DNA from: an uncultured Candidatus Saccharibacteria bacterium | GTDB taxonomy: Bacteria > Patescibacteriota > Minisyncoccia > 2-02-FULL-40-12 > GWA2-44-9 | DNA: 57,038 bases | Direction: 5' to 3' | NCBI GenBank assembly: GCA_964488565.1 | Contig: CAZAUE010000003.1 | Location: 1 to 57,038 of the forward strand | In this document: in pieces, positions 14,826-20,710 of the stretch | Numbering within the stretch: position 1 is the stretch's first letter | Layout: every line of letters begins with the position of its first letter | The notes under the pieces: generated by a model | Databases searched by the model: none | Told to the model about the DNA's origin: nothing | What the model saw: the letters and a program-made list of their open reading frames with translations, nothing else | Position numbers and translations under genes: made by a program

Positions 14826-15113
14826 ATGACCAAAATCACACCACTTTCAGACCATGTTTTAATAGAACCCCTAAGAGAGGAAAAGAAAAAGGGAGGAATT
14901 ATTTTGCCAGAAACGATTGAAAAAGAGAAGCAGGAAAAGGGCAAGGTTGTCGCTGTTGGATCCGGTAAAATTAAAGATGGCAAGAGGGTGCCCATGGAGG
15001 TTAAAAAGGGTGATGTTGTTTTGTTTACCAAATACGGGCCCAATGAAATCAAGGTTGATGGTAAGGAATATTTAATAGCTAGAGAAGAAGATATCTTGGC
15101 GATTGTAAAATAG
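14826..15113 (+). CDS. groES: Co-chaperonin GroES
   Basis: [38 protein letters not shown]. Confidence 0.97.
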
Positions 15114-15133
15114 TTGTAAAAATAAAAATTTAA

Positions 15134-16846
<1,713 letters not shown>

Positions 16847-16863
16847 GATTATTTAAGAAGTTT

Positions 16864-16903
16864 AGTCACAAACAAACCGCTTGCTAGCGGTTTGTTTGTG
16901 ACT
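16864..16903 (+). terminator. Long hairpin after groEL (probable terminator)
   Basis: 17-bp perfect stem agtcacaaacaaaccgc/gcggtttgtttgtgact. Confidence 0.7.
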
Positions 16904-17036
16904 GGGTGTGGTTATCCACACATCTTTTGAGTGAAAAAATGCTATGGTGTAAATAGCTAAAAAACTATTTTGGTGTCTAACGTATTAGCCTTTATTTAAG
17001 CGCTAGCTCTTACACCAAGTGGTCTCAAAATTGAAT

Positions 17037-18029
17037 ATGAAAACTTTTAAAAAGTTTTCGGGAGTTATGGTGGTTTTTTTCTTAATGCTTGGTCTGGTCG
17101 GACCATACTCTGCGATTGCGGCAACAACCCCATCCTTAGGGGCAGCAGCAAGCTACGGCGTTCTCGGCAGTACGTATACCAACACGGTAGCAGGAACCAC
17201 TGTTAATGGAGATGTTGGATTCACTACGGGGCCAGCAGTCGCTCCTTTAGGAGTCCACACTAATTATGGATCAGGTGCCCCGTATTCTACAGCAGGCATA
17301 GATCAAAATAGTGCCTTGTCTGCTTTGAATTCTCAGGTTTGTACATTTACCTTTGCGCCAGGAGCAATTGATTTGGCTACTGACACAACTCATGGCCCAA
17401 TTGGAGTTTATGCACCAGGGGTTTATTGCGTATCAGGAGCCGCTTCTATCGGGGCAGCTGGAATTTCTCTTAGTGGTACAGGAACATATATTTTCAGAAT
17501 CAATGGTGCATTTACCACAGTAGCTAATTCCTCGGTTACATTGCCTGGTGGCGCATCATCTTGCGATGTTTTTTGGACACCGACTTCTGCCACTACACTT
17601 GGAGCTAATTCCACAATGAGAGGAACAATAATTGATGCCTCAGGAATTACTATTGGAAGTACAGCATTATTAACAGGACGAGCTTTGGCTTTTGGTGGAA
17701 CAGTCACAACTGATGCTGACACAATTACAGTTCCTTCATGTGTGGCTCCTACCCCAACTCCTACACCTACACCTACACTTACACCAACTCCTACTCCTAC
17801 ACCAACCCCAGCACCTACGCTTTCTCCTACTCCAACACCAACTTCAACACCAATCGCAACTCTTACCCCAACTCCTTTCCCAACATTACCACGTGCAGGA
17901 ATCGCTCCCGATAATGGAACCTCATGGAATCTTGTTGCCATGGTTGGAATTTTTGCCACCCTAGCTTCGCTTTATTTTGCTCGAAGAAAGCAAGCGACCG
18001 AAGGGGAGCGCAGTGCCCAGCGCCAGTAG
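17037..18029 (+). CDS. DUF3494 ice-binding-like protein, PT-repeat stalk, sortase signal LPRAG
   Basis: Signal peptide; LGAAASYGVLG, YAPGVYC, YIFRINGA, CDVFWTP, GRALA; (PT)n linker; LPRAG + TM + RRK. Confidence 0.82.
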   Translation: MKTFKKFSGVMVVFFLMLGLVGPYSAIAATTPSLGAAASYGVLGSTYTNTVAGTTVNGDVGFTTGPAVAPLGVHTNYGSGAPYSTAGIDQNSALSALNSQVCTFTFAPGAIDLATDTTHGPIGVYAPGVYCVSGAASIGAAGISLSGTGTYIFRINGAFTTVANSSVTLPGGASSCDVFWTPTSATTLGANSTMRGTIIDASGITIGSTALLTGRALAFGGTVTTDADTITVPSCVAPTPTPTPTPTLTPTPTPTPTPAPTLSPTPTPTSTPIATLTPTPFPTLPRAGIAPDNGTSWNLVAMVGIFATLASLYFARRKQATEGERSAQRQ

Positions 18030-18071
18030 GTGGCGGGTGCAAATAATTTAACTAACTAAAAATTATTTAAC

Positions 18072-19883
18072 ATGAAAATGAATAACAAAAATTCAATAAC
18101 TATAATAACCATAACCGTGTTGATTCTGTCCTTAATGCTTGGTCTGGTCGGACCAAATTCTGCGCAGGCGGCAACGGCGCCAGTTTTGGGAACCGCTTCT
18201 GGTTATTCAGTTTTTGGTAATGCCGGCATAACGGAAACCGTTGCACAGACCTCTCATCTTTGGGGAAATGCTGGCGGTAATGGTTTTGGTCACGCCAGTC
18301 TTATTGCTTCTCAGGTTGATGGGACAATAGATGCTGGGGCCAATGCTTCGGTTGTGAGTGCAATATCCTTTGCATATGGAGATCTGGCTGATGAGGCACA
18401 AACAGGAGCAATTGATTTGGCCACATCACCTACGGTCACACCGGGCGTATATGATGTTGCCGCGACGGCATTTAGTTCCACCCTTACTCTTAATGGTGCG
18501 GGTGTCTACATTTTCCGAAGTACATCAAGCATTGCTCAAACAGCTGGAGGTACGATGCTTTTGACTAATGGTGCAACGGCCTGTAATGTTTTTTGGCAGA
18601 TTCCTACATCTATGACATTTGCTGCTGCTGGAAATATTGCGGGAACGATTATTACAAACACAGGACTCATTTCATTTGTATCAGGATTGAATTTGCAGGG
18701 TCGAGCTTGGGCAGCTACTCAAGTAACGATGAGTAATAACCAGATTACTGAACCGACATGTGTTACAGCTACTTCCACCCCGGCACCTTCACGAGCAGTA
18801 GCAACAATTAATGTTGTAAAAAATGTTATTAATGATAATGGCAGAACAAAGATTGCTGCTGATTTTCCATTATTCGTTAACGGAACACCAGTTATCTCTG
18901 GAATGACATATACCTTTCCTGCGCCTGCTAGTGTGTATTCAGTGACCGAAACAGGTGATTCAAATTACACTCGTGTATTTTCTGGTGATTGTGACACAAA
19001 CGGTCAATTCAATCTAAACCCAGGTGATAACAAATTTTGTATTGTCACAAACAACGACATAGGTGCACCCATAGTTCCTCCAGTACCACCGCTTATTGAT
19101 GTATTGAAAGTTCCAAGCCCGTTAGCTTTACCAGCTGGTCCCGGTCCGGTTACATATACTTATACGCTCAAAAATGTTGGAACAGTTCCTGTAACTGATA
19201 TAACCATGGTTGGTGATACATGTAGCCCAATAGTCCGCGTTTCTGGTGACTCAAACGGAGATAATAAGCTTGATATAACTGAGACTTGGATACACACATG
19301 TTCCACAACACTAACAGAAACTCATACCAACATTGTTACCGCTACTGGATGGGCCAACGGTATTTCTGCGGTTGATATCGCCTCTGCCACAGTTATTGTT
19401 GGATCACCGGTAGTTCCACCATTGATACATTTAATAAAAAGACCAAGCGTGTTTACTCTTCCGGCGGGCGGAGGGGCGGTTACCTATACATATATAGTAA
19501 GTAATCCAGGCACAGCGCCTTTGAGCAATGTAAAAATTAGTAGTGACAAATGCACTGGAGTTCCAAGCCGTGTTTTGGGACATCCTGGAGACATTAACAA
19601 AAACAGTTTACTTGAGAGTGGCGAAGAGTGGTTGTTTACTTGTTTAACAAACATTACACAAACAACAACAAATACAGGCACAGCTAGTGGCGATGCTAAT
19701 GGTTTTACAGCTCGAGATTTAGCGGTTGCTACGGTTGTTGTGGCCGCCACTATTCCAAAGTTGCCGAGTACTGGAATTGCCCCGGATGAATTAAGTGTTC
19801 TTTGGAATATTACCATACCAACAGGAGTCTTTATTGCACTACTTTCATTCTATTTTGTTCGAAGAAAACAAGAGGACTACTAA
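18072..19883 (+). CDS. DUF3494 ice-binding-like protein with Ig-like/DUF11-type repeats and LPSTG signal
   Basis: VTPGVYDV, GVYIFRS, ACNVFWQI, LQGRAWA; two VTYTY..N.G..P repeats; LPSTG + TM + RRK. Confidence 0.8.
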   Translation: MKMNNKNSITIITITVLILSLMLGLVGPNSAQAATAPVLGTASGYSVFGNAGITETVAQTSHLWGNAGGNGFGHASLIASQVDGTIDAGANASVVSAISFAYGDLADEAQTGAIDLATSPTVTPGVYDVAATAFSSTLTLNGAGVYIFRSTSSIAQTAGGTMLLTNGATACNVFWQIPTSMTFAAAGNIAGTIITNTGLISFVSGLNLQGRAWAATQVTMSNNQITEPTCVTATSTPAPSRAVATINVVKNVINDNGRTKIAADFPLFVNGTPVISGMTYTFPAPASVYSVTETGDSNYTRVFSGDCDTNGQFNLNPGDNKFCIVTNNDIGAPIVPPVPPLIDVLKVPSPLALPAGPGPVTYTYTLKNVGTVPVTDITMVGDTCSPIVRVSGDSNGDNKLDITETWIHTCSTTLTETHTNIVTATGWANGISAVDIASATVIVGSPVVPPLIHLIKRPSVFTLPAGGGAVTYTYIVSNPGTAPLSNVKISSDKCTGVPSRVLGHPGDINKNSLLESGEEWLFTCLTNITQTTTNTGTASGDANGFTARDLAVATVVVAATIPKLPSTGIAPDELSVLWNITIPTGVFIALLSFYFVRRKQEDY

Positions 19884-19904
19884 GTATTGATAAAAGTTGA
19901 AAAC

Positions 19905-19935
19905 CAAGAGTCCCGCCACGGTGGCGGGACTCTTG
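19905..19935. repeat. Near-perfect 31-bp palindrome between adhesin and sortase genes
   Basis: caagagtcccgccac-g-gtggcgggactcttg. Confidence 0.8.
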
Positions 19936-19959
19936 TGGCGATAATTTTTTGAAAAGTTT

Positions 19960-20559
19960 ATGAAATTAAAAACATTATCAACGAGAACATTGGTGATTGG
20001 AATTATTGCTGCTTCAATGTTTTTGTTGGCACTATTTTTTGATATTTTTCAGAAAAATAGTTCGGCGAGACTTATTGAAAATTTTGACAAAAACTTCACA
20101 CAAGAGCAACTGGGTCGTGGACTGCCAATGCGTCTTAAAATTCCAAAAATTAATGTTGATTCCGATGTTGAAAGTGTGGGCCTTGCCCCCGATAGTTCAA
20201 TTGGTGTTCCAAGAGAGCGAGAGAATGTCGCTTGGTTTAATACTGGATCACGCCCAGGTGATAATGGTAGTGCTATTATTGTCGGACATTATGGAATAAA
20301 TAATAAAAAAACTTCGGCATTTGATAATCTGCACAGATTGCGCAAGGGGGATAAATTATATGTGGAAGATGACAAAGGGGTAGTTACAACTTTTGTTGTT
20401 CGTGAAAACAGAAGATACGACCCCGATGCAGACTCTTCAAGTGTGTTTGGTCCAAATGACGGAAAGTCACACCTCAATCTTGTCACTTGCGAGGGAACTT
20501 GGGATGAAGAGAACCAGCAGTATACTAAGCGATTAGTAGTGTTTACTGACAAAGAATAA
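19960..20559 (+). CDS. Class F sortase
   Basis: N-terminal TM; PMRLKIPKINVD, RPGDNGSAIIVGH, LNLVTC, KRLVVF (His/Cys/Arg triad). Confidence 0.9.
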   Translation: MKLKTLSTRTLVIGIIAASMFLLALFFDIFQKNSSARLIENFDKNFTQEQLGRGLPMRLKIPKINVDSDVESVGLAPDSSIGVPRERENVAWFNTGSRPGDNGSAIIVGHYGINNKKTSAFDNLHRLRKGDKLYVEDDKGVVTTFVVRENRRYDPDADSSSVFGPNDGKSHLNLVTCEGTWDEENQQYTKRLVVFTDKE

Positions 20560-20621
20560 TAATACTCTTTGAATAAAAGTTAGATTTCGGCTATACTAAT
20601 TTAAATTTAGAATTATCACAC

Positions 20622-20710
20622 GGAGGAGTCGGATAGTGGTTTATTCCACCGCCTTGGAAAGGCGGCATCCCGCAAGGGATACGTGAGTTCGAATCTCACC
20701 TCCTCCGCCA
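20622..20710 (+). tRNA. tRNA-Ser(GGA)
   Basis: Acceptor ggaggag/ctcctcc-GCCA; anticodon arm ccgcc-ttGGAaa-ggcgg; long variable arm atccc-gcaa-gggat; T arm gtgag-ttcgaat-ctcac. Confidence 0.96.

Follow-up and report, generated by a model that had tools for sequence, protein, structure and literature searches.

The analysis reported here concerns a stretch of 57,038 nucleotides (hereafter, the window) from an uncultured Candidatus Saccharibacteria bacterium (GenBank assembly GCA_964488565.1, contig CAZAUE010000003.1), and in particular three adjacent genes that are predicted to display two DUF3494 proteins on the cell surface. The window corresponds to contig C3 of a 745-kb genome (98.7% complete, 39% GC), whose same-genus relatives include groundwater metagenome-assembled genomes (MAGs) named Candidatus Yanofskybacteria. 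The three genes are co-directional on the + strand (positions 17037–20559) and lie between groEL and a tRNA-Ser gene. The first two encode secreted DUF3494 proteins, referred to as IBP1 (17037–18029; 330 aa; PF11999) and IBP2 (18072–19883; 603 aa; PF11999 plus two DUF7507 domains), and the third one encodes a dedicated sortase (19960–20559; 199 aa; PF04203). This layout, i.e., two tandem DUF3494 genes followed by a sortase gene and flanked by groEL and tRNA-Ser, had been proposed in an earlier reading of the DNA (the sequence-only reading), and all of its elements were recovered at the positions given here.

The start codon of IBP1 is better placed at the ATG in position 17037 than at the alternative GTG (17019), since the former yields the MKxxxK n-region of the family consensus. 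IBP1 opens with a signal peptide (aa 1–28, MKTFKKFSGVMVVFFLMLGLVGPYSAIA↓A, where the arrow marks the predicted cleavage position), followed by a β-solenoid head (aa 29–237; PF11999, 89.4 bits vs. a gathering threshold of 28.7), a Pro/Thr linker of about 50 residues modeled with low AlphaFold confidence (aa 238–283), the sorting motif LPRAG (aa 284–288, nt 17886–17900), a transmembrane (TM) helix (aa 299–315), and the C-terminal tail RRKQATEGERSAQRQ (RRKQ plus 12 residues); the order of the C-terminus is LPRAG-IAPDNGTSWN-LVAMVGIFATLASLYFA-RRKQ.... The organization of IBP2 is parallel, with a signal peptide (aa 1–33, ending AQA↓A), a head (aa 34–228; PF11999, 75.4 bits vs. 28.7), a stalk, the motif LPSTG (aa 564–568, nt 19761–19775), a TM helix (aa 580–596), and the tail RRKQEDY, in the order LPSTG-IAPDELSVLWN-ITIPTGVFIALLSFYFV-RRKQEDY. 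In the AlphaFold model, the stalk of IBP2 consists of three β-sandwich domains (aa 242–329, 342–443, and 453–557), where Pfam gives two DUF7507 domains, and Foldseek finds it to resemble generic Ig/FnIII folds. The two kinds of stalk expected from the sequence-only reading, a Pro/Thr-rich one and an Ig-like one, are both present. IBP1 has more than 1000 homologues, mostly from the Candidate Phyla Radiation (CPR) and many with SpaA-like PF19403 domains, while more than 1100 homologues share the architecture of IBP2. As for the signal peptides, the c-regions of IBP1 and IBP2 (window 17068–17132 and 18118–18182) share 80% DNA identity, and the motif GLxGP...A↓A(T/A)(T/A)P(S/V)LG is kept across both IBP subfamilies (alignments A1 and A2), a degree of conservation that is unusual for signal peptides.

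The assignment of both heads to DUF3494 relies on three approaches that agree with each other. Besides the Pfam scores, a profile of the IBP1 family matched 25 solved ice-binding proteins in the PDB (best E = 1.9e-29). In the AlphaFold2 models, whose predicted local distance difference test (pLDDT) values are about 90–97 in both heads (~95 in that of IBP1; mean of the whole IBP2 model, 85.9), each head folds as a discontinuous β-solenoid with one long bracing α-helix (aa 83–98 in IBP1, aa 92–106 in IBP2). For both proteins, the top 31 PDB matches retrieved by Foldseek are all DUF3494 structures (EfcIBP, AnpIBP, IBPv, FfIBP, SfIBP_1, ColAFP, and others), with target-normalized TM-scores of about 0.66–0.84 to single-domain DUF3494 chains.

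The analysis of the C-termini revealed that complete tripartite sorting signals are present in both proteins, as the sequence-only reading had proposed from the signal peptide, the LPRAG and LPSTG motifs, the TM helix and the RRK tail; judging from the sequence, the pentapeptide, the hydrophobic segment and the positively charged tail make them LPXTG-type signals. An LPxxG motif falls within the last 55 residues of 97 out of 120 homologues, and the extended signal is recognizable across the family (LPxTG, then [IVF]-x-P-[DE], a few residues, PWN, a helix, and RKK); likewise, the substrates of other cassettes end with [LF]PxTG, a TM segment and RKK. Within the whole genome, IBP1 and IBP2 are the only DUF3494 genes and also the only matches to the LPxxG-TM-basic tail pattern. 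As no other LPxTG-type surface protein is encoded in the 745-kb genome, IBP1 and IBP2 are obvious candidates for the contact with a host or a substrate.

The composition of IBP1 is also peculiar. The mature protein (259 aa, window 17121–17900) contains neither lysine nor glutamate; among the 437 ORFs of the genome that reach 200 aa, IBP1 has the lowest lysine content (1.2% vs. a mean of 8.1%) and the longest lysine-free run, with IBP2 ranking second for the latter. Lysine is absent in 21 of 39 family members and most of the others have a single one, whereas proven ice-binding proteins do possess lysines within the aligned domain. A low lysine content also characterizes the DUF3494 heads of the IBP2 family, as well as other exported proteins of the same genome (1.5–2%). 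An adaptive role is conceivable for the near absence of lysine from the head, which could prevent the sortase from ligating the substrates together.

The third gene encodes a sortase (PF04203, 86 bits vs. a cut-off of 26.6) with an N-terminal membrane anchor. The predicted catalytic triad is formed by His110 (nt 20287–20289), Cys177 (nt 20488–20490), which sits in an LVTC motif, and Arg191 (nt 20530–20532), and the three residues are invariant in 30 out of 30 cassette sortases. The sequence-only reading had called this enzyme a class F sortase. Class F (NF033748) is indeed the best NCBIfam class, by more than 80 bits, the other ones (C, D, E, and GN) scoring at most 35 bits each (32.4 bits for class C vs. 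a cut-off of 160). However, its score of 117.4 bits is below the curated 166-bit cut-off, the matches to solved structures are weak, the best one being a class C enzyme (8T28, E = 3e-6), and no class F chain is found among the PDB sequence matches at E < 0.01. For these reasons, the enzyme is referred to here as class-F-like.

The genome harbors a second sortase, on a different contig (C13:13341–17045, L133), which scores about 35 bits with each of classes C, D and F and has no assignable class. It lies between a membrane protein with a CAP/SCP domain and a 618-aa surface protein made of DUF11 repeats; the latter ends with ...LNIKTGASSALFISLITGLLSTLGFYWYKVKIV, a possible sorting signal not of the LPxTG type. 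A comparison of this sortase with the cassette one gave no match at E ≤ 0.001. Since the C13 sortase is of another type and is adjacent to a DUF11 surface protein of its own, the two systems look independent, and it is fair to describe the locus as self-contained, as the sequence-only reading did: the other sortase has its own surface-protein neighbor, with a different signal.

In order to assess how far the association between substrates and sortase extends, it was followed in both directions. DUF3494 genes are patchily distributed: among 41 near relatives, 5 have them, and the 401 genomes sampled across the phylum yielded 38 carriers. Starting from the substrates (forward test), a same-strand sortase gene was found at most 6 kb downstream of DUF3494, usually at 0.3–2.5 kb, in 33 out of 40 Patescibacteria genomes with DUF3494; the remaining seven include at least one case at a contig edge and others with truncated DUF3494 matches. 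Starting from the enzyme (reverse test), 79 loci were collected from species-representative genomes by searching with aligned cassette sortases. In 70 of them, between one and three DUF3494 ORFs precede the sortase gene on the same strand; of the nine that lack such an ORF, seven are located at contig edges, with less than 1.3 kb of upstream sequence. Most of the DUF3494-bearing cassettes (54/70) contain a single substrate, the remaining 16 having tandem substrates, as in the window. Cassette-adjacent sortases score 105–242 bits against that of the window, whereas the other sortases of the same genomes do not exceed 60 bits, with the only exception of two in one genome (G295); the cassette sortases thus make up a subfamily of their own, separate from the remaining sortases of these genomes. 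The cassette was found in lineages that include Yanofsky-, Magasanik-, Nomura-, Wolfe-, Falkow-, Uhr-, Buchanan-, Doudna-, Berkel-, Peregrini-, Gracili-, and Saccharibacteria. The pairing of the sortase with DUF3494 proteins, put forward by the sequence-only reading for the window alone, extends to all these lineages, and the locus is one member of a CPR-wide module composed of a substrate and its dedicated sortase. The presence of the only DUF3494 pair and of the only sorting-signal proteins of the genome in one locus, together with the recurrence of the pairing throughout the phylum, is beyond chance.

Some peculiar cases were encountered among these loci. In one genome (G281:C1:60022–60489), a single 173-aa frame combines a truncated DUF3494 match with part of a sortase, which suggests either a fusion or a pseudogene. 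It is known that Gracilibacteria use an alternative genetic code involving TGA. An in-frame TGA occurs in each of the DUF3494 frames of G083:C1:146778–147320 and G449:C31:1597–2142; the latter genome comes from a record titled Gracilibacteria, which would fit the code of that group. Moreover, the CPR-type cassette is carried by records titled "uncultured Gammaproteobacteria bacterium" (L064, L066, L087, L091, L113, and L126); as these genomes measure only 0.8–1.2 Mb, the labels are probably wrong and the organisms are likely to be CPR members.

The spacer between IBP2 and the sortase gene contains an intercistronic hairpin (19905–19935, + strand; inverted repeat I5) with a perfect 15-bp stem followed by a T-run (minimum free energy, MFE, −30.2 kcal/mol; z = −5.1). 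Comparable hairpins (z < −2) were detected in 21 out of 30 substrate-to-sortase spacers of other lineages, with different stem sequences; they typically show a stem of 12–15 bp, usually a 4-nt loop and often a T-run after it, in spacers that are often ~85 nt long (L054–L124). An Rfam scan of the spacers returned tRNA only and no known RNA element. The recurrence of strong hairpins in the spacers in spite of the different stems suggests an attenuator that would keep the enzyme sub-stoichiometric; hence, the hairpin of the window is probably a partial terminator or attenuator setting the ratio of substrate to enzyme. A weaker and imperfect hairpin (window 17990–18045, z = −2.3) overlaps the unusual 12-residue extension of IBP1 past RRKQ (ATEGERSAQRQ) and shares the GTGGCGGG motif with the IBP2-sortase hairpin. 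The IBP1 frame may have been lengthened by reading into a former terminator, now decayed; the same C-terminal extension is present in the homologue P0005.

On the whole, we consider it likely that the three genes form a surface-display operon, in which two substrates precede their dedicated sortase and whose heads are fixed to the wall and most probably recognize a ligand other than ice. A self-contained wall-display system is the best reading of the locus because the DUF3494 folds, the complete sorting signals and an intact, DUF3494-linked sortase are all there. According to this model, IBP1 and IBP2 would be exported by the Sec system and their signal peptides would be cut at the AxA↓A sites, while the hydrophobic segment near the C-terminus, together with the RRK tail, would retain the proteins in the membrane. 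The membrane-anchored sortase, through His110, Cys177, and Arg191, would then cut within LPRA↓G and LPST↓G and pass the two proteins to a peptidoglycan precursor, so that the β-solenoid heads would end up covalently fixed to the wall, that of IBP1 on a flexible Pro/Thr linker and that of IBP2 on a rigid stalk of three β-sandwiches. The hairpin in front of the sortase gene would probably hold the expression of the enzyme below that of its substrates. As to the target, the heads would most likely bind the envelope of a partner cell, a polysaccharide or a mineral surface. The attachment to a mineral or to a host, which the sequence-only reading had listed together with ice, is plausible, and the episymbiotic lifestyle that it assumed fits a 745-kb, 98.7%-complete CPR genome.

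A wall acceptor is plausible as well, since four penicillin-binding protein (PBP) transpeptidase genes and an FtsW/RodA homologue are present in the genome and show that the organism builds a wall. Some points, however, weigh against the wall-display model. In addition to the sub-threshold class score of the sortase and its weak matches to solved structures, LPRAG has Ala at the usual Thr position, an objection eased by the occurrence of LPxAG in 11 of the 97 family members with an LPxxG signal. The ligand of the heads is entirely inferred, and we know of no description of the wall acceptor chemistry of CPR bacteria. A MurA-like ORF, located beside groEL in a relative (G018), has no tblastn match in the genome at E ≤ 1e-3. 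Lastly, the locus is absent from the RNA runs of the same studies, from which the organism is absent too, making them uninformative on expression.

The same uncertainties bear on the possibility that the two proteins simply remain anchored in the membrane, or that the sortase acts as a processing protease releasing them unattached. The wall attachment is deduced from sequence features, the CPR cell envelope is, like its acceptor chemistry, poorly known, and the MurA-like gene of the relative has no counterpart in this genome. Nevertheless, the His-Cys-Arg transpeptidase triad is strictly conserved, both substrates retain complete sorting signals, and PBPs and a SEDS (shape, elongation, division, and sporulation) protein are encoded in the genome; moreover, all the characterized sortases act as transpeptidases (PMC8225981). 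Taken together, these data make membrane retention or release improbable. Even less probable is the assembly of a pilus or fiber, in which IBP subunits with a DUF3494 tip would be polymerized through Lys-isopeptide bonds in the style of class C sortases. It is true that tandem substrates beside a dedicated sortase are the classic layout of a pilus locus, that the best PDB sequence match of the enzyme is the class C structure 8T28, and that SpaA-like PF19403 domains occur in many homologues. However, mature IBP1 and the other lysine-free members of its family lack the pilin nucleophile, and without it IBP1 cannot be a conventional pilin; IBP2, with 11 Lys in its stalk, is not barred on this basis. 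The class C score of the sortase is far below the cut-off, and the 50 best fold matches of IBP2 include no pilin. Class C sortases usually have a second, C-terminal TM segment, which inspection by eye did not reveal in the 199-aa enzyme. The pilus model is disfavored on account of the lysine-free IBP1 and of the prevalence of single-substrate cassettes.

A further possibility is that IBP1 and IBP2 are genuine ice-binding or antifreeze proteins, serving cold adaptation through the inhibition of recrystallization or the attachment to ice, as the sequence-only reading had allowed. The homology of sequence and fold to proteins of proven activity (IBPv 5UYT, EfcIBP 6EIO, FfIBP 4NU2, and SfIBP_1 6BG8), one of which, SfIBP_1, shares the logic of a head on a β-sandwich stalk, is in line with this idea, and DUF3494 sequences have been reported from subsurface and frozen-sediment metagenomes (PMC12337378). 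Yet near-identical copies of the locus were found solely in groundwater metagenomes, the same source as the window, and the carriers of the cassette come from aquifers, a CO2 geyser, lakes (a summer lake included), peat, and similar sites. IBP1 and IBP2 score 36.9 and 28.1 bits with the NCBIfam ice-binding equivalog IBP_CFB (NF045625), missing its cut-off of 400 widely, and the DUF3494 family has no sequence motif that predicts ice activity. Furthermore, published work also places DUF3494 proteins in warmer climates and counts "substrate-binding" members among them (PMC11645318; PMC12337378). Given that the source and most of the named carriers are groundwater or lake genomes, ice is an unlikely target.

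The sequence-only reading had also compared the locus to an acquired cassette, and this issue was addressed through the analysis of its flanks. Upstream of the three genes lie groES/groEL (14826–16846, groEL ending at 16846) and a groEL terminator hairpin on the + strand (16864–16903; perfect 18-bp stem, inverted repeat I2, MFE −44.6 kcal/mol, z = −9.0), which marks the upstream limit of the cassette transcription unit; downstream, the gene for tRNA-Ser(gga) (20622–20710, + strand; ARAGORN and Rfam RF00005) is the landmark closing a variable interval. The backbone formed by an S55 peptidase, groES, groEL, tRNA-Ser and Omp85 is conserved in relatives, and tRNA-Ser follows groEL in 9 out of 11 groEL-downstream regions fetched from them, at distances of 0.75–3.9 kb. 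In every relative examined, the interval between groEL and tRNA-Ser is occupied by other genes: pyrG (CTP synthase) in three congeners, two of which (G002 and G005) have it whole and the third (G004) in two pieces; an RdgB-like gene in a further congener; LemA and an HtpX-like protease in several family members. In the window (interval 16847–20621, compared with L043–L053), the cassette occupies the pyrG site of the congeners; a tblastn search of the whole genome with a congener pyrG gave no match at E ≤ 1e-3, and the gene is seemingly missing.

A recently acquired genomic island, integrated at tRNA-Ser, would account for the adjacency to the tRNA gene, for the patchy distribution of DUF3494 and for the different contents of the interval in same-genus genomes, where the cassette resides at unrelated loci. 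In the cassette-bearing congeners and family members (G002, G003, G006, and G018), neither groEL nor tRNA-Ser is nearby, which makes the position observed here lineage-specific. On the other hand, different housekeeping genes fill the same interval in other relatives, indicating a spot that is generally prone to rearrangement. No integrase ORF is present between 12.9 and 26.6 kb, and no att-like repeat flanks the cassette; a partial copy of the tRNA was not found either, the upstream matches to tRNA-Ser being at most 13 nt long. The GC content at third codon positions (GC3) of IBP1, IBP2, and the sortase gene (0.28–0.30) equals that of groEL and falls within the range of the genome. The raised GC content of the cassette is confined to codon position 2 and can be ascribed to the amino-acid composition of the proteins (Thr/Ala/Gly/Pro); a foreign origin based on this anomaly was rejected. 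A recent insertion of foreign DNA is, on balance, unlikely. What stands of the acquired-cassette claim is the mobility, i.e., the variable occupancy of the site and the different locations in congeners: the module moved during evolution and bears no marks of recent foreign insertion.

The module is widespread, built from known kinds of parts and undescribed in the literature searched. Genome pipelines already name these proteins "ice-binding family protein". In a survey of fibrillar adhesin-like proteins (Monzon et al. 2021, PMC8286594), Ice_binding (PF11999) is among the 27 "adhesive" domains found in combination with stalk domains, and PF19403, seen in many of the homologues described here, was built in the same work; in the portion of that paper considered here, PF11999 is treated as binding ice, and neither a dedicated sortase nor the distribution in CPR bacteria is mentioned. 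Among the papers retrieved by the literature search, none was found to link DUF3494 with a sortase, and in those dealing with sortases and ice-binding proteins the passages considered do not describe the pairing. As no new mechanism is needed and the proteins are already annotated, the advance consists in the association and in its interpretation. DUF3494 is usually read as "ice-binding"; the occurrence of putatively anchored DUF3494 proteins with their own sortase across groundwater and lake CPR bacteria argues for a more general role in surface binding, recommends caution over the "ice-binding" annotation and supplies concrete candidate substrates for class-F-like sortases. A broader proposal, which we advance only tentatively and regard as rather doubtful at present, is that the DUF3494-sortase module is a CPR-wide attachment device, directed to a non-ice ligand on a partner cell or substrate and served by a substrate-specific class-F-like sortase. 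If this were true, a second major function would be added to the "ice-binding" fold, and the sortase class in question, for which the literature gives no physiological role, would have its first natural substrates.

Three further known systems can be compared with the locus. SfIBP_1 is reportedly a protein of a cold-marine Gram-negative bacterium, with an N-terminal tether and a measured ice-binding activity. It is also a direct fold match of the proteins described here (target-normalized TM-score 0.72–0.76). In this protein of Shewanella frigidimarina (PDB 6BG8; Vance et al. 2018, FEBS J 285:1511, cited in PMC11645318), a DUF3494 head is carried by tandem β-sandwich domains, and a role as an "ice adhesin" has been proposed. 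As in SfIBP_1, the head would be held off the cell by a β-sandwich stalk and tethered to the envelope, an arrangement known here from the sequence and the predicted fold; the proteins described here differ from SfIBP_1 in their N-terminal head, in the predicted anchoring through a sortase signal at the C-terminus, in their groundwater CPR host, and in the dedicated sortase encoded next to them. With class F sortases, the enzyme of the window shares the short length, the N-terminal membrane anchor, LPXTG-type substrates, and the best class score. The SrtF of Cutibacterium/Propionibacterium acnes (Di Girolamo et al. 2019) has been described as a housekeeping enzyme, whereas the sortase of the window is tightly paired with one substrate family; in Actinoplanes missouriensis, the deletion of all four class F genes (SrtF1–4) gave no phenotype, and the roles of the class are stated to be unknown (PMC13251363).

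Specialized operons in which a sortase is associated with its own substrates are known, such as SrtB-IsdC of Staphylococcus aureus, with the NPQTN signal, and those of the class GN "marine" sortases (TIGR03784). The locus of the window follows the same scheme, with a sortase lying beside its one to three substrates and apart from any general sortase. It differs from the SrtB and GN systems in the class of the enzyme, whose matches to the SrtB and GN models are weak, in the cargo, and in the signal, which here is LPxTG followed by the conserved [IVF]-x-P-[DE]...PWN.

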